IMG/VR virus record: IMGVR_UViG_3300013099_000020
Length of the DNA: 64,000 nt
Source of the DNA: a virus
Strand: one strand, 5' to 3'
The notes beneath the pieces are model-generated. The model made no database searches, was not told the origin of the DNA, and saw only the letters and a program-made list of their open reading frames with translations. A program made the position numbers and the translations under genes. Below are positions 27,636 through 62,064 of this stretch, piece after piece (position 1 is the first letter of the stretch; every line of letters starts with the position of its first letter).

Positions 27636-29468
27636 ATGGCCGAGTATCGCATCGATCAGGCAACCCCGGGAGCAGGCGTACCCAACGTCGCTCGGCATGA
27701 CCTTATCGCCGGGGAGATTCTTACGCTGACAGCCATTTCGCCGGCCCCAGGAGCCGGCGTCAGCTACCTCTGGGAGATTGTCGACAAGATAGGGTCGACA
27801 GCGACCCTGAGCGCCACCACTGGGGCCTCCGTCACCATCGGCCCAGGTGGCTCCATCGTCCAGCCCTGCGGCTTCCAGGTCCGCCTCACAGCCAACGACA
27901 ATGGGGTCATCACCGTCGTCGAGCGGGTCTTCAGCGTCACGACAACCAACCTCGGGCTGAGAGTTCCTCTGTTCGCTGAGACTTCGCCCCCTGAAGCCGA
28001 TCTGGGGTCGAACGATCCCGACGCCTCGACCGACAATGCGGTCTATGTCGATCGGGCTGGGCTGGGCGTCGCCGACCAGAACTGGCGCGGCTGGGCAGAG
28101 TGGGCCTATCGAATCACCATTGCGCTGGATGCTGCCTCGGGTGGGGCCGTAGACACGGATGCCATCCACGATAATGTGGCAGCGGAGATCTCCGCCATCA
28201 CCGAGAAGGTGATTCCGGTTGCAGGCGATCACCTCCTTATCGAGGACAGTGCAAACCTCAACAACAAGAAGCGGGTTCAGATTGGGAACCTCCCCTCCAG
28301 CGCCAGCTCTCAGCAGGATACCTACGACGTAGGCGCGGGCATCGTCCAGACCGATGCTGGCGGGAAGGTGGAGATCGACGACACGGGGACCACCGTTCCG
28401 ACGGACGGGTTCAGTGTTCGTAAGACGACCACCGATGGCGTCGCTGCCTTCTTCCGAAACGAGCAGGTGGGTGGGGCCAACACAGCCCTCCTTACATCTG
28501 GCAAGTCAGCATTCGTCGCACCGTCCGCAGCTCAGGTGGGGGACGTAGGGCACACGTTTGCCCCGGGACGTACGGAGACTCAGGGCGCCCGGAAGGTGAC
28601 CCTGCCCTGGGCGGTGGACGAGTCGTTCGCGGCCATCGGCGGGAACTTCAACTTCATCATCACCGATGGTGATCCCGATGCGCACGTCACATCGGGTGAC
28701 CCAGGATCACTGGCAATCAATCCGACCTCGGGTTCGATCTACAAGAAGACATCGAACCCTTCTTCGTGGGAAGAGCTTGGAGGGGCAGACCTTCCGGAAG
28801 ATAATGAGGTTACCCACGCCACCAACACTACGGTGCTTGGGACCACCTATGTGCTCGTGGGGTCTGTGTACCTCCCGGCGGGAACCATCACAGCCGCTGA
28901 CAGCCGAGTCATGCTTGGCACAGATCAAGTTGCGGATACGGCTGATCTTCAGATTCGACGATTCACGGGCGGCGCAGTCATCGCCACGATCTCTGCAACG
29001 GGGGTGCTCCAGGAAGCGCAGCCCGGCGGGAACATCACTGTCCCAGCAGATGACTGGTACGATCTCTACCTCAAAGCCGATGTTGTCACGACCAATGCCC
29101 TCCTTCGGGGGCTGAGGTTCGTCTATACCCTCAACGCCGGTACTCGGATTCGACAGGCGTTCAATCAGACACAGACGGGTACCACGCCGCTTCTCATAGG
29201 CTCGGTTTATCTGCCCGCAGGCACGCTCCAAGCTACGGCGAAGTGCATGCTGGGTACCTTGGCAGGAGGCACAGCCACTATTGAGCTTAGGCGGTTCACG
29301 GGAGGAGCAGCCATCACGACGTGGACGGCTACCGGGGCTCTTCAAAACTCGGTTCTCGGAGGCAGTGTCGTCACCCCGGCAGACGATTGGTACGACCTCT
29401 ACCTCTACGGCGACGCAGGTCCCACGGTCGCGATTCTCAAGGGCCTTGATTGGACGGTGTTGACATGA
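27636..29468 (+). CDS. tail-fibre-like structural protein with internally duplicated ~90-aa C-terminal domain
   Basis: Two near-identical segments (VLVGSVYLPAGTITAADSRVMLGT...PADDWYDLYLKAD and LLIGSVYLPAGTLQATAKCMLGT...PADDWYDLYLYGD); Gly/Thr-rich beta-type composition. Confidence 0.5.
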   Translation: MAEYRIDQATPGAGVPNVARHDLIAGEILTLTAISPAPGAGVSYLWEIVDKIGSTATLSATTGASVTIGPGGSIVQPCGFQVRLTANDNGVITVVERVFSVTTTNLGLRVPLFAETSPPEADLGSNDPDASTDNAVYVDRAGLGVADQNWRGWAEWAYRITIALDAASGGAVDTDAIHDNVAAEISAITEKVIPVAGDHLLIEDSANLNNKKRVQIGNLPSSASSQQDTYDVGAGIVQTDAGGKVEIDDTGTTVPTDGFSVRKTTTDGVAAFFRNEQVGGANTALLTSGKSAFVAPSAAQVGDVGHTFAPGRTETQGARKVTLPWAVDESFAAIGGNFNFIITDGDPDAHVTSGDPGSLAINPTSGSIYKKTSNPSSWEELGGADLPEDNEVTHATNTTVLGTTYVLVGSVYLPAGTITAADSRVMLGTDQVADTADLQIRRFTGGAVIATISATGVLQEAQPGGNITVPADDWYDLYLKADVVTTNALLRGLRFVYTLNAGTRIRQAFNQTQTGTTPLLIGSVYLPAGTLQATAKCMLGTLAGGTATIELRRFTGGAAITTWTATGALQNSVLGGSVVTPADDWYDLYLYGDAGPTVAILKGLDWTVLT

Positions 29469-33174: not shown

Positions 33175-33331
33175 GTGATCGAGCGTGCTATTCTACTTCT
33201 TGTACTGTTGGCTTCGTGCGCAAGCTCCCCACCGCCTGGGCCTGTGTGCGTGGTCTCTGGTTGTGCTCCTGACCAGCGTTTCGATGCTGATCATTGCCGT
33301 TGCGTGCTGAGAGACGATGCGAGCCTTGAGT
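33175..33331 (+). CDS. small Cys-rich lipoprotein (~51 aa; ILLLVLLASC lipobox)
   Basis: GTG start right after the upstream stop; hydrophobic segment ending LASC; stop overlaps the kinase start (TGATG). Confidence 0.35.
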
Positions 33332-34439
33332 GATGGTGATCGACTACCAGAAGTTCTTCGATGCTGCATTCGATCTCCTCTGCGTGGTTGATGCCACTCA
33401 TTTCCTGTCAGTGAATCAGGCGTGGGTTACGGTGCTGGGGTACTCCAAGGAAGAGCTGCTAGGCAGTCCTTGGGAAGACTTCATTCACCCGGAGGACCGG
33501 CAGCGAAGCAGAGATCGGTACGGTCAAGTACCTTCCGAAGGGGCCTTCGTGAATCGGTACATCACCAAGGATGGTGATGTCGTCTGGTTGGAGTGGTCCC
33601 TGCTTCCCCATCAGGACAGTGACTGTGTGCATGCCGTGGCGAGGGATATCAGCAGCTGCAAGGTGGTGGAAGAGCAGCTCGGAAAGTCCGTGCTGAAGCT
33701 CCGTAGGAAGGCGGAGGAGCTGGAAAGATCGAACCGTGACCTGGAGCAGTTCGCCTACGTCGCATCCCACGACCTCCAGACTCCACTGCGCAAGGTCAAG
33801 AACTTCACCATACTCCTACGCCGAGAGTACGGGGACGTGCTGCCCAGCGAGGATGCCCAGAAGTACCTGCGCTTCATCATCAATGGGGCGGAGAAGTCCC
33901 AGGCTCTGATTGATGGACTACTGGCCTTCTCTCGCACTGGACGGCACCTGCGGATAGAGGAGACAGACTTGAACGTCCCCCTCCGAGAAGCACTCTCGAT
34001 CCTTAGCGAGTTCATCCAGGAGCGCGGAGTTTGTGTGACGGCAGACTCACTACCCATAGTACAGTGTGACTCGGTCCTTCTGGCGCGTGTGTTTCAGAAC
34101 TTGGTGGGCAATGCGGTCAAGTTCCGTCACCTCGAACGCCCACCAAGGGTTCATGTGGGTGTCGAAGTTGAGGGCACCGACTGGAAGTTCACAGTAGAAG
34201 ATAATGGAGTCGGTTTTGACCCAAGGCACGCAGAGCGGATTTTCGTAATCTTCCAACGTCTTCCGGGTATAAAGCAGGGGACAGGTCTCGGCCTGGCCCT
34301 CTGCAAGAAGATCATTGAGCAGCATGGTGGCCGCATATGGGCAGAGAGTACCCCCGGGGAAGGCTCTCGGTTCATCTTCACCATTCCGCAGGAATACAAG
34401 AACGGTCATGCATACACTGAACCCCCTGCGCCCCGCTGA
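33332..34439 (+). CDS. cytoplasmic PAS-domain sensor histidine kinase (PAS - HisKA - HATPase_c)
   Basis: PAS-like N-terminus; H-box FAYVASHDLQTPLR; N-box NLVGNAVKF; G1 DNGVGFD; G2 GTGLGLALCKKIIEQHGGRIWAES; no transmembrane segment. Confidence 0.8.
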
Positions 34440-52877: not shown

Positions 52878-53918
52878 ATGGAGTTCCCCTTCTCCAAAGG
52901 AAAGCGGCCTCGAAAGAGCCGCTCTGGTGCTATGCCTCTAAATGTGGAGACGCTCACCAAGCAAGAGCGTCATGGGAAGGCCAAGATTTCTGGGCTCACC
53001 TTCGATGCATTCTCCTCAACTATGATGGGGAAGTGGTCCGCCTACCCCGATCCCTCGGCAGGGACGGTCTCCCCGACGACCGGCATCCAGCGCACTCCCA
53101 GCACTCTGGCGGACGACGACGACGCCGAAGAGGCGGTCAAGACCTTGAGCCACGGGAAGAACGTCCGGAAGCACCTGGGTATAGGGGCCGTGGGTGCCGC
53201 CGCGGGCCCCCTCATCGCTGCTGCTTCCCGAGGGGCCAAGGGCTTCCTCGATACCAAGGGCGGTGTCGGTGTACGGACAGGAGGGGCGCTGAAGGAGGTC
53301 AGCAAGGCTTCGCTAGGTGATGTCGGGTCTCAGGCCGTGGGTGGGGGCCTCGGAGGTGTGGTCTCCTCGATGGGTCTGGAAGAAATCAAAGTCAGGCAGG
53401 CCCAAGACAAGCTGCGCTCCTTCCTACAACGCTCGAAAGGGGGCGCCACGAAGGAAGCCGGAAGGATGTCCCCCGTCGCTCGGGCCACAGCCTTCCGAAG
53501 GCTGAAGCAGCTGGGAGACACGGGGGTCCACAGCTTCCAGCAGAACTCCAATGACATTCCTCAGATCGGAAGAGATCTCGAAAATATCATCGGGGGGCAA
53601 CTCAAGGAGCCCTTCGAGCAGCTGGTAGAGACCGCCCGCACACCCCAGTACCTCGGAGAAACCGCGAAGCGGATGAAGCAAAAGAGGGCGGCTGATGGCA
53701 TGACCGGCATGGGCGGCACCACAGGAGCCAGGGTGGGGGGCACCTCCGGAGTTGTCGGCGGGGCTCCCCCCTTCAACGCTGCGCAGATGGCTAACTCAGC
53801 CCGAGGAGCCGGAGACTTCACCCCGTCTGTCCCCAAGGCCAAGGCACACTCTGTTCGAGGTAGTTCAACCAACCCCCGACTCCGTTTGCTGGACGCCATG
53901 AATAAGGGGACGGCATAA
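52878..53918 (+). CDS. Gly-rich virion/internal protein (346 aa)
   Basis: ORF; GGxGG-rich low-complexity middle and C-terminus. Confidence 0.45.
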   Translation: MEFPFSKGKRPRKSRSGAMPLNVETLTKQERHGKAKISGLTFDAFSSTMMGKWSAYPDPSAGTVSPTTGIQRTPSTLADDDDAEEAVKTLSHGKNVRKHLGIGAVGAAAGPLIAAASRGAKGFLDTKGGVGVRTGGALKEVSKASLGDVGSQAVGGGLGGVVSSMGLEEIKVRQAQDKLRSFLQRSKGGATKEAGRMSPVARATAFRRLKQLGDTGVHSFQQNSNDIPQIGRDLENIIGGQLKEPFEQLVETARTPQYLGETAKRMKQKRAADGMTGMGGTTGARVGGTSGVVGGAPPFNAAQMANSARGAGDFTPSVPKAKAHSVRGSSTNPRLRLLDAMNKGTA

Positions 53919-54287: not shown

Positions 54288-55097
54288 ATGGTGAAGAAGA
54301 GGCTCGGCAAGAGGGAGCTAGACGCATTCCTCCAGCAGGGGCGTAAGGCAAAGCTGCATGCTGCGCAGGCGAAGGCTCCTAAAGAGGTGGAGCTGTGGAA
54401 GGACTGGCACAGCGGAGGCCGGCGACAGAAGGACCTGGTCCCGCTCATGAAGAGCCTGGAGAATGTCGTACGCTCTCAGGCGCGACAGTACAGCTCTGGG
54501 TATGGGGGGTCGCTTGTACCAGGAGCCACGGAGCTTGAGCTTCGCAGGCACATGAAGAAGGCGATCGAGAGCTACGATCCCAACCGAGGGGTCAAGCTTT
54601 CGACGTGGGCGATCAGCCAGATGCGTGCCTTCACCGGGAAGGCAGCCAAGCGGAGGAACTTCGGGACCCAATCCAAGAAGGACTTCCAGGCAACGCAGGA
54701 GTTCAACAACGCGATCAACGAGCTGCACTCGCAAGGGAAGCTGGACCCGACGCATCATGAGATCGCCGAGCGAGTGGGCTGGCCTATTTCTCGTGTGAAG
54801 AGGATGCAGACGGGGACCATGCGGCGAGAGCTGTACACCGGGATCACTCCCGGACAGGACGACGATGTCGGAGGAGCACCGAGCCAGATGCGTAGCATCA
54901 TGAGCTTGATGTACTTCAACAACGACGAGGAGAAGAAGGTCTTCAGGGCTCTGAAGCTGCACTCTCCGGATCGAGACCTGGACAGCCGGGTCAACATGGC
55001 GCGTACTGCCAAGACTCTAGGCATACCCTTGTCTCGGTTGTACAAGATCCGAGACACTCTCAAGAAGAGAGTTCAACCCCTGGTCAGTAGGATCTGA
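54288..55097 (+). CDS. sigma-70 family sigma factor (regions 2 and 4 only)
   Basis: Region 2 signature ESYDPNRGVKLSTWAISQMRAF (cf. DP.RG.KFSTYA..WI); C-terminal HTH MARTAKTLGIPLSRLYKIRDTLKKR resembling region 4.2. Confidence 0.7.
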   Translation: MVKKRLGKRELDAFLQQGRKAKLHAAQAKAPKEVELWKDWHSGGRRQKDLVPLMKSLENVVRSQARQYSSGYGGSLVPGATELELRRHMKKAIESYDPNRGVKLSTWAISQMRAFTGKAAKRRNFGTQSKKDFQATQEFNNAINELHSQGKLDPTHHEIAERVGWPISRVKRMQTGTMRRELYTGITPGQDDDVGGAPSQMRSIMSLMYFNNDEEKKVFRALKLHSPDRDLDSRVNMARTAKTLGIPLSRLYKIRDTLKKRVQPLVSRI

Positions 55098-56512: not shown

Positions 56513-58084
56513 ATGGCCAGAACATTCATTCGCCAGGACGCCCAGATCGGGTCCACTCTTGATACCCTTATCGGGTTCAGCGACGCCGTTGCGCCTGCTG
56601 CGACTATGGAGTCGGGTGCAGGGACGATCGCAGACGACCTGAACAACCTGCGCTCGATTGCCTCGCTCCTGAAGGATGGGCAGGCGGGCAACTGGTACGA
56701 CGACCTTGTTGCTCCGAGTACGCTTGAAGCGGGCACGAAGCGCGGCGTCGATGCTGTGAACGATGGCCTACACGCGGTCGAAAAGAAGCGCGTGCTCGCA
56801 GACACTTTCATCCACACGGATGTTACCGTCACGGCCGCGCAGAACTTCGAGATTCTGTTGCTGGCTGAGCTGCCGTCAAATGCCATAGCGGCAGTCGGAG
56901 CGGTCACCACTCTCGGCACCGTGGCAGCCTTCCACTCAGGTACGTTCGGACAGCACTCGCTGGATCTGGTTGCGGGGTCGGATGCAGTCTCTCCGCTCAA
57001 CCTCGGGCTCGTCGTTGATTCGGCGACACACGATCCTCTCGTGTCAGCTGGTCGTCAAATCTGGGCTCTGTTCCAGACCGAGACCGTGACAGACGGGCAC
57101 ACCATGACCGGCACCACGCCGGTTCGCGCGCAGCTTTCCTTCGTTCGCCTGAACGCTGCGGGCACCGCGCTCGAAGCGTGCCCGGCCGGGGACATCGCGG
57201 GACAGACCATTCACTACTGGGTCCGTGAGCGTAAGCGCCTCGAAGACCTGACCGAATCCGACTTCCTGCGCGGCGCGAGCATCGACATCGGAGCGGGTTC
57301 CACTACCGTCGATCGACAGACCTCGTACACCAACCAGGGCACGACCCCGGTTGATCTCACAACCAATGCGATCCTCGATCTCGAAGGCGCAGGCCTTGCG
57401 TGGTCTATCCGCGATGATCTCGAAGCCGACCTCTTCAAGGTCACTGAGGGCAGCGCGGGCGGTACAAGCGAAGTGCAACTCGCAGCCGCCGTCGATGTGT
57501 TCAACGTGGACGCGATCGTCAACGACTTCGCAGCTGGTGCAACTATTCGTAGTGGAGGCACTCGGCCCATCGCGGCGGGGGTCACTGACGGGGTCATTGA
57601 GACCACGGCGGGCGACCTACAGCTCGGCGGCGCCAATGGCGAAACCATCCTGAATGATGTCAACATGGACACCGAAGGCACCTGGACTGGCCCAGGCGTC
57701 AAGGTCTCTGAGACTGTCACTGAAGTCAGCGACTACGAGACGGCATTCGGGGGTGAGGTCTCGCTCATGAACGCCATCGTCCAAGCCAAGCAGGGGTCGA
57801 GTCGCACGCGAGTTGACTCGACCATGACCGCAAACGCCGCCGCGGCGGCCGATGTGAACGGGCCGGGTACTGCGCACGCCAACTGTGACACCGACCTACT
57901 CCCCTACGACACTGCTGGGATCGCTTCACTCGAAGTCTTCCTCAACGGTGAGTTGTACCGCCTCACTGACGACTACACCGCTGGGGGTACGCCGGCAGAA
58001 GGTGACCTTCAGTTCACGTTCAACCTCAAGGGCACAGGCGCCAAGCCGGACCAACTCACCGTCATCCGTAATGGCACCAACTGA
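56513..58084 (+). CDS. structural protein (523 aa; capsid or sheath-sized), unknown
   Basis: ORF with GGAGCACCGCAGC context; Ala/Thr/Gly-rich. Confidence 0.5.
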   Translation: MARTFIRQDAQIGSTLDTLIGFSDAVAPAATMESGAGTIADDLNNLRSIASLLKDGQAGNWYDDLVAPSTLEAGTKRGVDAVNDGLHAVEKKRVLADTFIHTDVTVTAAQNFEILLLAELPSNAIAAVGAVTTLGTVAAFHSGTFGQHSLDLVAGSDAVSPLNLGLVVDSATHDPLVSAGRQIWALFQTETVTDGHTMTGTTPVRAQLSFVRLNAAGTALEACPAGDIAGQTIHYWVRERKRLEDLTESDFLRGASIDIGAGSTTVDRQTSYTNQGTTPVDLTTNAILDLEGAGLAWSIRDDLEADLFKVTEGSAGGTSEVQLAAAVDVFNVDAIVNDFAAGATIRSGGTRPIAAGVTDGVIETTAGDLQLGGANGETILNDVNMDTEGTWTGPGVKVSETVTEVSDYETAFGGEVSLMNAIVQAKQGSSRTRVDSTMTANAAAAADVNGPGTAHANCDTDLLPYDTAGIASLEVFLNGELYRLTDDYTAGGTPAEGDLQFTFNLKGTGAKPDQLTVIRNGTN

Positions 58085-58099
58085 TAGTAAGGACCCACC

Positions 58100-58666
58100 G
58101 TGACCGTACGCAAAGACCAACTCCATACGTGGAAAGGTGCCGTCGATGCCACGGGCGCAGTGGGGCAAAACCTCGACAAGCTCGTGACTGATGCCGAGCA
58201 AACACAACACCGCTGTCGAGGGGGGAAGCTAGCCCTACAAGAGCAGGCTAAGAAACTGCAAAGCGTCCACGCTTACGCGGACGCCGAGTTTGCGGAGGGC
58301 AGTCTCGACGTGGAGACGCTCTCGCTCGTGAAGCGGTACGTCACACGGTGCATCGATGCAACGAGCAACGCTGCCAAGCAGCAAGAAGCTGAAGAGCTGG
58401 CGTCTGCGGGCAGAGTGTCTGCGTTTCGGGAGGCACTCGCTCTCACGGCGAATCACCACAAGGTTGCAAAGGGTCGCTTCGATCAGTTGAATACCCCCCT
58501 GCCTAAAGATGAACCCGATACCGAGAGGGCTCCTCGCAAGGGCCGACCCAGTCGATCCGAGCGTAAGGCGGCGCAGGCGAGGCTCGATACTGTACCCAAG
58601 AAGTCTGCGGCCAAGAAGGCTACCAAGAAGGGGACAGCTAAGAAGCGCATCCCGAAGGGGGTCTGA
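58100..58666 (+). CDS. protein with Lys-rich C-terminal tail (scaffold or DNA-binding?)
   Basis: ORF; C-terminal KKSAAKKATKKGTAKKRIPKG. Confidence 0.45.
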   Translation: MTVRKDQLHTWKGAVDATGAVGQNLDKLVTDAEQTQHRCRGGKLALQEQAKKLQSVHAYADAEFAEGSLDVETLSLVKRYVTRCIDATSNAAKQQEAEELASAGRVSAFREALALTANHHKVAKGRFDQLNTPLPKDEPDTERAPRKGRPSRSERKAAQARLDTVPKKSAAKKATKKGTAKKRIPKGV

Positions 58667-58947
58667 TGGCTCGCGACGAACGCATCCGTGATCTCTTTTT
58701 CACAGACCAGACATCGGAAGGCGCCCCCACTGAAGAGGGTCTTGTCCGTCGGGTCTCTGATGATCTAGTGGCTTTCATTGATGGGCAAGCAAAGTCGCTC
58801 ACAGCGGGTGGTGGTGCGATGCCCCCAGCAACCGAAATAGGCCAGGTGCTTTTCTCAGAGGACGGGGCTACCTTCACGGCTGAGACCCCACTCACAAGCT
58901 GTGAGGGCTGGCTCGTGAACAACGACGGGATTCTGTTGGTGGTCTGA
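58666..58947 (+). CDS. hypothetical protein
   Basis: ATGG/ATGA-coupled ORF. Confidence 0.4.
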   Translation: MARDERIRDLFFTDQTSEGAPTEEGLVRRVSDDLVAFIDGQAKSLTAGGGAMPPATEIGQVLFSEDGATFTAETPLTSCEGWLVNNDGILLVV

Positions 58948-59567
58948 TGAGTACAGGAACACACGGGGACCAAGGTCCCGCACAGGGCATCCATGTCATC
59001 CAGGCGTATGAGGTGGCCAATGCCGTTGCGCTCGCTGTGCTCCCGGTGGTGGCAGCGGACATCGGCAAGGTGGCGAGGAAACTCGACGACGACACCTTTC
59101 ACGTTCTTGTGTCCATCGGCCCCTCAGTCTGGGTGGACATTACGGCAGCCGGTGGTGGTGGCGGATCTGTCTTCGGACAGGGCTACCACTACGAAGAGAA
59201 GCTCACTCAGCAGAACACCTCATCGTCCTCGCTAGTCGAGTACATGACCACGACCACCCCCATACTGCTGGCAGGGGAGTACAGGATCGAATGGACGGTC
59301 ATCTACGGATACGGGTCGGCATCCCAAGATTTCATATTGGCGGTCCAAGTCGATAACAGCCAGGAGATCATCGACCCGTTGAATGGTGGGGTTATGCGGG
59401 AAGAGCCGAAGGACCCTGGGACAAATCAACGGTTCGCGCGGTCGGGCTCACGAGACCTGACGCTCACGCTGGGCGCCCACCAGATCGACATGGACTTCGG
59501 AGCCAGCAATGGGTCTGCACAGGCCCGCATCTACAATGGCACCCTACGACTCTACAGAGTGAGCTGA
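58947..59567 (+). CDS. structural protein, unknown
   Basis: ORF. Confidence 0.5.
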   Translation: MSTGTHGDQGPAQGIHVIQAYEVANAVALAVLPVVAADIGKVARKLDDDTFHVLVSIGPSVWVDITAAGGGGGSVFGQGYHYEEKLTQQNTSSSSLVEYMTTTTPILLAGEYRIEWTVIYGYGSASQDFILAVQVDNSQEIIDPLNGGVMREEPKDPGTNQRFARSGSRDLTLTLGAHQIDMDFGASNGSAQARIYNGTLRLYRVS

Positions 59568-59568
59568 C

Positions 59569-60699
59569 ATGCCCATCCACACCAAGACCTATACGATCTC
59601 GACCGCCGTTGGCGGTGGCGCCGTCGATGAGTCCCGCCTCGATTTGGAGATTCGCCAGAGCCCAGACATTCTACATGCGTTGAGCGGTATCTCCTCGGAC
59701 ATCGGGACGGACACGCTCTCGATCAGTTTCAGGGACATGCTCACGTCGCCCGAGGAAGTTGCACTGGGGCAGCTTGTCGCTGTTCACACCGGACTCCCCC
59801 TCGAAGAGCCGGTGAACAGCGACGGCGTGCCTCTTGTTGCGCTCGCTGGAATCGGCAGCGTCCAAGTGGTCGGGCGTACGGGCTCGGAGATGATTCGGGC
59901 CACGCATGACTTCTGTCATCCTTGCACTTGGTTCGGGGAGTCCGTGCGTACCTCCGAGGTGCTCACGAATCCTTCCGCAGATACCCTGACCTGGAAGAGC
60001 GCGAAGGCGTGCTGGATCGACCTGATGCACGGCAAGATCCACGACGAGGAGCGTATCTCGTCTACGATCTCTCACGGCTATCTGCCTGTAGTAAAGGTCA
60101 ATGGCGTGGCGCAGCTACGCCGCCCCTACCGCGCATCGGACTGGTCGCTCGGTGGGGACTACTACATCGACCATGAGGCTGGTGAGGTCGTCTTCCAGGC
60201 GGCTCCCGCTGCCGCTCCTGAGGCGGAGTACAGCTACGCGGTTGGCAGCGGGTGGGTCCTGCAACCAGATCCCGGTAAGGTCATCGAGATCGAAAACGCG
60301 GAGCTTCAGTGGATCGACGTGGACTACAATGCGGCGATCGTGCAAGACGTGGAATACTCGCCCGATGGCGGGACTACCTGGATCGTGGTTGACCGCAGTA
60401 TCTACAAGTCGTTCGCCCAGATCGTCGATGAGGCGCGGGGCTCATTCCCTGAGCAGGCTGCCGTGGTGGGGACCCCCACCTGGCGTGGTACCGCGGGCAC
60501 CATCCAGCACACGCCGCTGATCTATTCCGCCGTCAAGGCTCTCCGGTCGAGCCAGGGTATCCGCATGCGAATGTGGCTGGGCTACGTGTCTCATGCGGCA
60601 GACAATAGCGTCATCGTCACGGAGGTCGATCCCGCAGATGGTGGCTTCGGTGGCGAGCGAGCGACGGCTACTTTCTATGCCGTCAGCAAGGATGAGTGA
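59569..60699 (+). CDS. structural protein, unknown
   Basis: ORF. Confidence 0.5.
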   Translation: MPIHTKTYTISTAVGGGAVDESRLDLEIRQSPDILHALSGISSDIGTDTLSISFRDMLTSPEEVALGQLVAVHTGLPLEEPVNSDGVPLVALAGIGSVQVVGRTGSEMIRATHDFCHPCTWFGESVRTSEVLTNPSADTLTWKSAKACWIDLMHGKIHDEERISSTISHGYLPVVKVNGVAQLRRPYRASDWSLGGDYYIDHEAGEVVFQAAPAAAPEAEYSYAVGSGWVLQPDPGKVIEIENAELQWIDVDYNAAIVQDVEYSPDGGTTWIVVDRSIYKSFAQIVDEARGSFPEQAAVVGTPTWRGTAGTIQHTPLIYSAVKALRSSQGIRMRMWLGYVSHAADNSVIVTEVDPADGGFGGERATATFYAVSKDE

Positions 60700-61568
60700 C
60701 TATGCGTGGTGCAGCATTCAGCGGTGGTGGTTTCTATGGCAACGTGATTGTCGGGATGCTTCAGCGCATTTCAGAGGACGATGACTTCGAGCCTTGGGGC
60801 TGCATGACTGGCATCTCGACGGGGGCTTTGATCGAGAACGTCATCGCGCAGTACCCTAAGAGCCGGTTCAAGGATGCTATCCAAAAGCTCACAGGCATCT
60901 ATACCCCGCGGGTCACCGAGGACATCCATCGCAGATGGTTCATGGGGAAGATGGCTGCGCTATGGAAGCCTTCGCTACGGAACACCGCAGCACTCCGAGG
61001 GCTCATCGATGAGCTGAGCAACAACGAAGCCATCCGGACGGGGGACTATCGGACAGCGGTGGGGGTCGTGAACCTGGAGCAGGGGTACTACGAAGCGATC
61101 GGGCACGACTACATTCCCTTCAATAAAGCTGTCGAAGCGAGTGCATCCCTGCCTGCCTTCTTCGAGCCAGTGCGTGTGCCTGAGCATGGGTTGTGCGTTG
61201 ATGGGGGCGCTGCCGTGGGCTGCGACATCGGGACCCTAATCAAGATGGGTTGCACCGAGATCGATGCCTTCATCGCGATGCCAGAGAAGTTGGCCCCCAA
61301 GTTTATGCCAGATCCGGAAGCCCTCGACGTGGCCCTGCGCACCTTCGAGGTCATGGTTCACACGGCGTTGTGGCAGCAGGTCAAGATGACTCGAATCTAT
61401 AATCAGATCGCTCTTGGAGGGGATCAGCGCCGGAAGTACATCAAGCTGCGTGTCTTCGCTCCAGACCGTTTGGTGGGTGATGGGATGGAGTTCGTACCCT
61501 CACAAGCCATAGAGCTTCAGGAGATTGGACGCTCTGCTGCCTCCGAAGTCTTGCATAGCGTAGACTAG
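60696..61568 (+). CDS. patatin-like phospholipase
   Basis: Gly-rich oxyanion box AFSGGGFYG, nucleophile elbow GISTG (GxSxG), and DGG catalytic Asp (VDGGAAVG) in the canonical order and spacing. Confidence 0.65.
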   Translation: MTMRGAAFSGGGFYGNVIVGMLQRISEDDDFEPWGCMTGISTGALIENVIAQYPKSRFKDAIQKLTGIYTPRVTEDIHRRWFMGKMAALWKPSLRNTAALRGLIDELSNNEAIRTGDYRTAVGVVNLEQGYYEAIGHDYIPFNKAVEASASLPAFFEPVRVPEHGLCVDGGAAVGCDIGTLIKMGCTEIDAFIAMPEKLAPKFMPDPEALDVALRTFEVMVHTALWQQVKMTRIYNQIALGGDQRRKYIKLRVFAPDRLVGDGMEFVPSQAIELQEIGRSAASEVLHSVD

Positions 61569-61572
61569 GTAG

Positions 61573-62064
61573 GTGACTGCCAAGCTCACAGCCCTGATCG
61601 GCGCCGCAGTGAACCTCCCCTTCACGCTTTTTGACGTGGATGGGATCACCCCCTTGACAGGGGAAGCCGATGTGGACTTCACCAAGACTCTCTTCCGCGA
61701 TAGCGCGGATGAGACGGGTTCCATTCCGGTCACCATCACGGAGATCGGAGCGACCGGGCGGTACTACGCCGAGTTCACCCCCGATGCTCGGGGGCTTTGG
61801 TTCGTCAACGCCATCCATGCCGACACCGAGGTAGCCTTCGGTTGCTACGTGGATGTGGGGCTCTTCGACACCGTAGAGACACTTCGCAAGGAGACCTCGA
61901 ACCGGAATGAACTGGACTTCGCGACACAGGAAGAGATCGCCTACGACGATGACGGAACCACAATCATCCAGCGTTGGACGTTGGAGACGGATGGCGGTGA
62001 GCTGGTCACGACCCAGGTAGGTGTCCAGACGAAGCGTAAGGTCCCGACCCTGCCGAGGCCCTGA
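61573..62064 (+). CDS. hypothetical protein
   Basis: GTG-start ORF. Confidence 0.4.
   Translation: MTAKLTALIGAAVNLPFTLFDVDGITPLTGEADVDFTKTLFRDSADETGSIPVTITEIGATGRYYAEFTPDARGLWFVNAIHADTEVAFGCYVDVGLFDTVETLRKETSNRNELDFATQEEIAYDDDGTTIIQRWTLETDGGELVTTQVGVQTKRKVPTLPRP

Follow-up and report, generated by a model that had tools for sequence, protein, structure and literature searches.

What does a lipid-cleaving enzyme do among the virion genes of a phage? The question is raised by a gene for a patatin-like lipid acyl hydrolase (60702..61568, + strand) in a stretch of 64,000 nucleotides (nt) from the virus record IMGVR_UViG_3300013099_000020. This stretch, here called the window, belongs to a metagenomic contig of 75 kb. 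The gene was identified as an open reading frame (ORF) matching Pfam Patatin and having a predicted patatin fold. We tentatively read its product, with distinctly less than even confidence, as a late-made envelope-lipid hydrolase, linked to a virion protein and probably borne by the virion itself.

The longest ORF (60696..61568, + strand) starts at a GTG and encodes 290 amino acids (aa); counted from the ATG at 60702 the product has 288 aa. The ATG is probably the true start. It is favoured because a Shine-Dalgarno-like AAGGATGAG (60688..60696, + strand, within the 3' end of the upstream gene) lies 5-6 nt upstream, and because the public gene calls, which give a patatin product of 288 aa (P0001), and the starts of the homologs, which begin at MRGA, agree with it. 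The earlier note on this DNA, made from the letters alone, had claimed the patatin elements in canonical order for 60696-61568, and all three were found there: in the numbering from the GTG, FSGGGFYG occupies aa 8-15, GISTG aa 39-43 and VDGG aa 168-171. The translation places the Gly-rich oxyanion box S-G-G-G-F-Y-G (aa 9-15) at 60720..60740, and translation and alignments together place the nucleophile elbow G-I-S-T-G with Ser41 at 60810..60824 and the catalytic Asp motif D-G-G with Asp169 at 61200..61208, all on the + strand.

Conservation of these motifs was judged on 27 context-verified and 148 representative homologs. Residues S9, G10, G11, G12 and G15 were invariant across the seven closest homologs of the window patatin (alignment A1), and G39, S41 and G43 as well as D169, G170 and G171 were invariant in alignments A1 and A5. 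The GxSxG motif was kept in 143 of the 148 family representatives and D[GA][GA] in 142, so the loss of the Ser or Asp motif that the note had named as a ground for dropping its claim was not observed. The oxyanion box deviates from the usual G-G-G-x-[K/R]-G in one position: the place of the Lys or Arg is taken by Tyr in the window patatin and by Y, F or W in its subclade, the basic residue being present in 87 of the 120 representatives with a scorable box.

Comparison with Pfam PF01734, the check proposed in the note, gave a match above the curated threshold (43.5 bits against a gathering cut-off of 27.7, E 5.3e-11, residues 7-173). An AlphaFold2 model built on seven homologs had a mean predicted local distance difference test score (pLDDT) of 83.6 and a predicted template modelling score of 0.86. 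When this model was compared with the PDB by Foldseek, all of the top 30 matches were patatin-fold proteins (CapV, PlpD, CapE, Pat17, VipD, iPLA2-beta and ExoU; E 8e-12 to 4e-4), with template modelling (TM) scores of 0.6-0.7 to PlpD, CapE and Pat17; the predicted structure is thus that of a phospholipase of the patatin type, as the note had supposed. The protein is single-domain, the catalytic strand beginning at residue 3. The only segment with a pLDDT below 50 is a conserved aromatic stretch, WF..K.AALWKPS (aa 81-94), which may be a mobile lid or a membrane-binding loop. A pseudo-enzyme or a chance ORF was ruled out by motif conservation and fold. As judged from sequence and model, the gene product is a lipid-cleaving enzyme of the patatin type whose active site is intact; it would be expected to be catalytically active and to hydrolyse acyl esters of host membrane lipids.

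The gene directly upstream of the patatin (59569..60699, + strand) encodes a 376-aa jelly-roll protein, hereafter the partner. Its stop codon (TGA, 60697-60699) ends 2 nt before the ATG at 60702, the next gene begins 4 nt past the patatin stop, and no promoter- or terminator-like site was seen between the patatin and its flanking genes. With the stop codon beside the ATG and the Shine-Dalgarno-like sequence inside the partner gene near its end, packing of the two genes is tight and their translation is probably coupled. The best fold match of the partner was a capsid turret protein, with resemblance also to cement proteins. A weak likeness to distal tail proteins came from DUF2460 (Pfam PF09343), which was matched by four of 19 members with a best E of 5.7e-6; in a CbK-like siphophage the DUF2460 gene comes after the tape-measure gene (PMC9127768). 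A single-sequence match of the partner to the endoglucanase 6gjf (E 1e-4) was lost in the profile search and was rejected as spurious.

The pairing recurs. The partner stands immediately upstream of the patatin in the window and in five other loci (L001, L002, L013, L015 and L097). When IMG/VR was sampled starting from the neighbour, the patatin followed the partner in 19 of 77 loci at distances from -124 to +940 nt, 115 nt or less in 16 of the 19; when it was sampled starting from the patatin, the partner was found immediately upstream in 29 of 72 loci. The pair was also present on a 41-kb phage contig beside a Laminin_G_3 fibre gene. The pairing is old, because pairwise identities of the two proteins correlate (Spearman 0.54, 209 pairs) down to patatin identities of 22-29%. 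Despite this, alleles have at times been swapped: the L013 patatin is 26% and its partner 50% identical to the window proteins, the corresponding values for L001 being 64% and 39%. Long ORFs in L013, L036 and L051 that looked like patatin-partner fusions were artefacts of extension to the longest ORF. Two paralogous patatin genes, about 1.3 kb apart (about 2.2 kb from start to start), were seen in L064 (7143-8012 and 9293-10294), both downstream of a single partner gene; the viral contig is 187 kb long.

Where a neighbour-positive locus has no patatin, the gene directly after the partner usually encodes a protein of 160-200 aa. Two clusters of such proteins (15 and 10 loci) carry invariant His...G..YD...C.E motifs, and the profiles of both match Escherichia coli YiiX (PDB 2if6), a permuted NlpC/P60 papain-like enzyme, with E values of 2e-13 and 4.5e-6. 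Loci with a YiiX-like gene after the homolog of the 376-aa protein include L021, L024, L029, L031, L050, L055, L061 and L067, among others. In the 77 loci the slot held a patatin in 19 cases, a YiiX-like gene in 30 (27 of them adjoining the partner), neither in 28 and both in none, and the nominal probability of zero overlap is 1.4e-5. The slot behind the virion-type gene holds one of two unrelated hydrolases, from superfamilies that include attackers of the envelope (of lipid, or of peptidoglycan and lipid).

The patatin closes a block of genes that was found to be conserved by BLAST synteny, encoding in this order proteins of 523, 188, 93, 206 and 376 aa and the patatin. The 523-aa protein (56513..58084, + strand) has at least 973 homologs, the best 120 listed being 52-69% identical, on contigs of up to 283 kb. 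It had no match in Pfam, PHROG, the PDB sequences or GenBank phages (tblastn included) and its homologs carry no annotation; it is a core protein, probably a structural one, of a large uncultured phage clade. It is followed by the 188-aa protein, which looks helical by eye and has a Lys-rich C-terminal tail, and the 93-aa protein (together 58100..58947, + strand), with homologs in L001, L013 and other loci. The 206-aa protein (58947..59567, + strand) contains a domain of about 140 aa, detected by BLASTP, that recurs just upstream of the partner in related phages, in ORFs of 1,472, 1,602 and 200-500 aa, and its 884-aa homolog in L015 matches phrog_8510, 'virion structural protein'.

In related phages the block lies among genes of known virion function. 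It comes after prohead protease and Phage_capsid genes in L013 and after Phage_base_V and GPW_gp25 baseplate genes in L001, and in L002 and L015 it is bounded by the capsid gene on one side and on the other by genes for the head-tail adaptor, the tail sheath, the gp19 tube, the baseplate and the tape measure. Within 10 kb of the patatin, syntenic relatives have genes for Phage_capsid, a prohead protease, Phage_base_V, GPW_gp25, a tail sheath, T4_gp19 and a tape measure. Pfam families on the flanks of loci with both patatin and partner were Laminin_G_3, right-handed Beta_helix/Pectinesterase, TIG and PG_binding_1; the commonest flanks of patatin loci with no detectable partner were major head, virion structural, head-tail adaptor and tail terminator proteins and homing endonucleases. 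The view of the note that the gene sits among structural genes is supported mainly by synteny, and also by the flanks across the family. The three genes downstream of it in the window (61573..63754, + strand; 163, 240 and 317 aa) are ORFans that form a variable region, and searches against the other loci with BLAST and against PHROG and Pfam gave no match for any of them. A conserved small partner, inhibitor or holin was looked for downstream of the patatin and none was found, as the downstream genes vary. The 240-aa product (62064-62786, + strand) is acidic and contains five 34-aa repeats of exact period (DDG..E.PQH...GLDPQ.DP...F.PDES), for which Tandem Repeats Finder detected no repeat at the DNA level.

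What has been observed directly is the family of the enzyme, its fold, the conservation of its catalytic residues, the packing of the operon, the recurring adjacency and the two kinds of alternative occupant of the slot; we infer catalytic activity, a lipid substrate, binding to the partner, action at entry and, from the gene neighbourhood, virion carriage. A mechanism that would join these points is as follows. In the patatin, Ser41 would act as the nucleophile and Asp169 as the general base, with the backbone of G10-G12 forming the oxyanion hole. It would be transcribed with the genes of virion morphogenesis and its translation coupled to that of the jelly-roll virion protein, the two forming a cassette of a virion adaptor and a free-standing envelope hydrolase. 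The partner would capture the nascent enzyme, so that it is kept off the inner membrane of the producing cell and becomes loaded on the particle or inside it. In the following infection, local hydrolysis of glycerolipids in the host envelope would help the DNA-delivery machinery to cross a lipid barrier. In sister phages a YiiX-like permuted NlpC/P60 Cys-His hydrolase takes the slot of the patatin. Such a cassette would account for the tight packing, the long-term adjacency, the interchangeable hydrolase and the nearby lectin and beta-helix fibre genes, and for how a cytosolic phospholipase made late can spare the membrane of its producer.

Several observations weigh against virion carriage by way of the partner. 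In 43 of the 72 loci sampled from the patatin no partner was detectable. Close homologs in L006-L008 lie beside a tubulin gene and the partner is absent; the patatins of L098 and of Rhodothermus phage RM378 lie among replication genes, and that of L099 between portal/MuF and cement/capsid genes, all without the partner. An N-terminal extension, a signal peptide or a structural domain by which the window patatin could be tethered is absent. The mutual exclusivity of the two hydrolases probably reflects few independent events, because the patatin and YiiX states follow the phylogeny of the partner: the nearest neighbour in that phylogeny shares the state for 17 of the 19 patatin loci and 22 of the 30 YiiX loci. 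No close cultured relative was found, matches in GenBank phages being remote only. The outer leaflet of the Gram-negative outer membrane consists of lipopolysaccharide, a poor substrate for patatins, and we know of no tailed phage in which use of a lipase for entry has been demonstrated. The wider proposition that many large and huge uncultured phages carry a modular cassette, in which a jelly-roll protein docks either a patatin or a YiiX-like enzyme and the patatin version is a virion-borne phospholipase that opens a lipid barrier at DNA delivery, we regard as unlikely in its entirety.

The main rival reading is that the patatin serves lysis or egress. It would be made late, remain harmless until the inner membrane is permeabilized, and then degrade the phospholipids of the inner or the outer membrane in place of spanins. 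This is a possible reading, on balance a doubtful one. Co-transcription with late structural genes fits it, and so does the lack of a signal peptide, which is shared with LysB and with canonical endolysins that depend on a holin; P2-like phages have lysis cassettes between the head and tail modules. The occurrence of the patatin in several contexts would suit a soluble enzyme that needs no structural partner, and cell-wall peptidases are among the members of the NlpC/P60 superfamily, from which the other occupant of the slot comes. In phage WO a conserved patatin beside the tail module was proposed as a lytic enzyme that replaces the GH108 lysozyme of related phages (PMC9203015). The neighbourhood does not look like a lysis cassette, however. 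The 136 flanking proteins with a PHROG match hit 97 families, and the 25 most frequent of these include no endolysin, holin or spanin; Pfam showed neither a lysozyme nor an amidase family in 79 further flanks or in the 70 ORFs of the window. A crude hydropathy scan of the flanking ORFs in 24 loci revealed no conserved membrane-spanning or holin-like protein adjoining the patatin, and in the window none at all. Moreover, an unrestrained cytosolic phospholipase made together with capsid proteins would reach the inner membrane early, and a role in lysis leaves the recurrent tight pairing with a structural-type gene unexplained.

It is rather improbable, in our view, that the enzyme remodels lipids inside the cell as an auxiliary metabolic or cell-biological function, either freeing fatty acids and lysolipids or reshaping or dissolving host-derived membrane compartments during infection by a large phage. 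An auxiliary metabolic role has been ascribed to patatin genes of a marine megaphage and of contigs from viral metagenomes (PMC9723777, PMC9469726), and nucleus-forming jumbo phages have membrane-derived vesicles early in infection, with the way in which the genome gets out of them still under question (PMC13282480). Contigs of more than 200 kb often carry a member of the family, a tubulin gene adjoins one close homolog, and the enzyme, having no signal peptide, looks cytosolic. The dominant context, however, is that of late structural genes and not of early or metabolic ones, and such a role leaves the link to the jelly-roll gene without an explanation. Neither a chimallin nor a marker of viral RNA polymerase was recognized in the window, and divergent ones may escape the tools used.

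As to the origin of the enzyme, an exhaustive profile search of 1.84 billion representatives gave 552 clusters (at 50% identity) with E values of 1e-30 or less. The best 150 listed matches are mostly 270-310 aa long and cover nearly the full profile, including about 100 residues past the Pfam domain. The word-indexed homolog search gave only seven patatin homologs and badly under-represents the family in comparison with the profile search. Scanning of IMG/VR revealed at least 176 viral loci with a family member, many on contigs of 200-529 kb; among the complete huge-phage genomes with both patatin and partner is IMGVR_UViG_3300035182_002586 (529 kb). Ten sampled clusters were metagenome-only singletons, with 'NTE family protein' as one source name. 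GenBank phages contained only remote relatives of 27% identity or less, in Rhodothermus phage RM378, which is the sole cultured phage among the matches, and in two huge uncultured phages; the sole tblastn match of the partner in GenBank phages was the unannotated 595-kb uncultured phage LR756511, which has no patatin. Among 185,579 species-representative prokaryotic genomes a pattern-limited search based on the A1 alignment yielded two weak matches of 23-24% identity. The PHROGs have no family for the window patatin. A single-sequence PDB search with it gave only sub-threshold matches (PlpD, E 0.42), and the family profile was needed to bring out PlpD at E 1e-19, ahead of CapV at E 9e-11; RssA was the best or second-best NCBIfam match for distant members. 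By these comparisons the family is a large, deep, phage-specific clade from uncultured and often very large phages that has not been described before.

Very improbable, finally, is a defence-derived effector, whether a captured CapV-like lipase of the cyclic oligonucleotide-based anti-phage signalling system (CBASS), a cyclic-nucleotide decoy or an abortive-infection toxin acting in counter-defence or superinfection exclusion: patatin effectors are common in defence systems, AbCapV was the best Foldseek match and distant members give sub-threshold matches to models of CBASS and other anti-phage phospholipases, but the window protein matched nothing in PADLOC or NCBIfam, its relatives stay far under the cut-offs (P0005 scored 59 bits against 200 for CBASS_lipase), the family profile lies nearer to PlpD than to CapV, Pfam showed no CD-NTase or other sensor family among the called neighbours or the 70 window ORFs, and the family is old, phage-borne and co-diverging with a structural-type gene. 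An origin of the gene in a host defence island, as suggested in the note, or a recent acquisition from one is likewise not supported, as its G+C content and its G+C content at third codon positions match those of the neighbouring genes, its divergence runs parallel to that of the partner (the correlation of 0.54) and no close cellular homolog other than the two weak matches emerged from the pattern-limited search. CapV and CapE share the patatin fold and a similar size with the phage protein and rank at the top of the Foldseek matches (E about 1e-11), but identity to them is 12-18%, every CBASS cut-off was missed or the protein went undetected, and a CD-NTase partner is lacking.

A close parallel in sequence and fold is with bacterial patatins of the PlpD/RssA type (PF01734), which have the same fold and Ser-Asp dyad. 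PlpD was the best PDB profile match, with Foldseek TM scores of 0.63-0.72, at about 18% identity; the phage protein lacks the beta-barrel/POTRA architecture of PlpD and a secretion signal, and in the window subclade an aromatic residue replaces the Lys or Arg of the oxyanion box. The toxins ExoU and VipD are large multi-domain proteins with a C-terminal localization or cofactor domain, in contrast to the single domain of 288 aa in the phage patatin, and target-normalized TM scores were only 0.24-0.30. Mycobacteriophage LysB, a cutinase-type alpha/beta-hydrolase with a Ser-Asp-His triad, belongs to lysis cassettes and occurs only in phages of mycolic-acid bacteria; it resembles the window patatin in being a phage lipolytic enzyme that is made late, has no signal peptide and acts on an outer lipid layer. 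The best-known virion-borne phospholipase used for crossing a membrane at entry is the phospholipase A2 (PLA2) of parvovirus VP1u. The analogy is functional only, as that enzyme has the unrelated secreted-PLA2 fold, is a domain of a capsid protein and belongs to a eukaryotic virus.

A parallel in gene arrangement, and a precedent for the proposed cassette, is offered by g12 and g14 of the Rhodobacter capsulatus gene transfer agent (RcGTA), g12 being, we presume, a member of the DUF2460 family. There too a small free envelope enzyme is encoded near a distal-tail-type gene, and the slot in the phages is alternately occupied by the NlpC/P60 superfamily; the differences are that the RcGTA enzyme is a peptidase and not a lipase, that g12 and g14 are not adjacent, and that the 376-aa partner is only weakly DUF2460-like. 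The g14 product is a free-standing peptidoglycan peptidase of 150 aa, probably kept inside the tail and expelled to the periplasm, and its gene lies near the one for g12, the distal tail protein (PMC7296036). The patatin of phage WO is likewise phage-encoded, stands beside a structural (tail) module and was proposed to attack membranes, the function of the 'patatin-based lytic cassette' being a hypothesis (PMC9203015). An ankyrin protein and a membrane protein resembling a holin belong to that cassette; neither was found at the window or related loci by Pfam or the crude hydropathy scan.

The identity of the enzyme is ordinary; the conserved cassette in the structural regions of huge phages is new and testable. 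A report on a marine megaphage presented its patatin as the first from any phage genome and assigned it to the auxiliary metabolic genes (PMC9723777), and patatins are also known from viral metagenomes (PMC9469726) and from phage WO (PMC5062602, PMC9203015). Until now phage patatins have received only brief mention, either under auxiliary metabolic genes or, in phage WO, as an untested lytic candidate, and a literature search turned up no description of a compact phage-specific patatin subfamily, of its placement in a virion module behind a DUF2460- or turret-like gene, or of the alternation with YiiX-like enzymes. If the enzyme is borne by the virion, phage entry would use lipid hydrolysis besides the degradation of peptidoglycan and polysaccharide. 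It would then be, to our knowledge, the first lipid-hydrolysing entry enzyme in tailed phages and a prokaryotic counterpart of the parvovirus VP1u PLA2. If it serves lysis, it would point to spanin-independent breakage of the outer membrane. Either way it would be a compact membrane-active enzyme with possible use as an enzybiotic, and the cassette provides a concrete handle on a structural region that otherwise has no annotation, in a phage clade that is abundant but uncultured.

The window as a whole has about 60% G+C, and its large ORFs are on the + strand with few exceptions, the patatin being part of an uninterrupted co-directional run. A nucleotide search with 56.1-64 kb against 50,697 GenBank phage genomes gave no match. 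The large window ORFs are dark to Pfam and the PHROGs, and ten neighbours of the patatin had almost no PHROG match. Because homologs of the 523-aa protein are many, lie on contigs of up to 283 kb and are missing from GenBank phages, we conclude that the window comes from a large, abundant, uncultured phage lineage. A 346-aa ORF at 52878-53918 showed no BLAST similarity to the Phage_capsid protein that occupies the equivalent position in L013. The Pfam families that were recognized in the window comprise RNase HII, a histidine kinase with a PAS domain, a response regulator, regions 3 and 4 of sigma-70, Cpn10, an HD domain, an exonuclease and a major-vault-protein-like family.

A few other features of the window and of related loci were noted. 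The gene for the sigma-70-like protein (54288-55097, + strand), which has regions 3 and 4 and matches PHROG 351 weakly, lies some 1.4 kb upstream of the block that begins with the 523-aa gene. The histidine kinase (33330-34439, + strand) has PAS, HisKA and HATPase_c domains and matches PHROG 'kinase' families, and the response-regulator receiver domain is found elsewhere in the window; spermine-synthase-like and Matrixin-like domains are present as well. Four tRNA genes (Leu-CAA, Tyr-GTA, Leu-TAG and Ile-AAT) at 832-1072 and 12171-12247 are on the - strand, opposite to nearly all coding genes. An 871-aa ORF (1448-4063, + strand) matches MVP_shoulder (E 3e-22) and Vault_3 (E 8e-8) and is close in length to the eukaryotic major vault protein; its residues 500-800 match major vault proteins in the PDB at E 3e-16, and a vault homolog is unusual for a phage contig.

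In L006 (10883-12205; also in L007) a patatin 64% identical to that of the window lies directly upstream of the gene for a 440-aa Tubulin (PF00091) protein and downstream of an SNase gene and small ORFs, an arrangement that hints at a phage with a tubulin cytoskeleton. In L009 and L010 (11107-21068) the homolog of the 376-aa protein is followed by a cluster of about 10 kb that encodes glycosyltransferases, sugar epimerases/dehydratases and a methyltransferase and no hydrolase, possibly a module for modification of virion or host glycans. Finally, comparison of the window at 27636-29468 (+ strand) with L001 at 12704-14377 showed a 225-aa segment of 78% identity in phages that are otherwise far more diverged. 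The gene containing it lies about 2 kb downstream of the patatin in L001 and about 31 kb upstream of it in the window, which suggests a shuffled or mobile domain.

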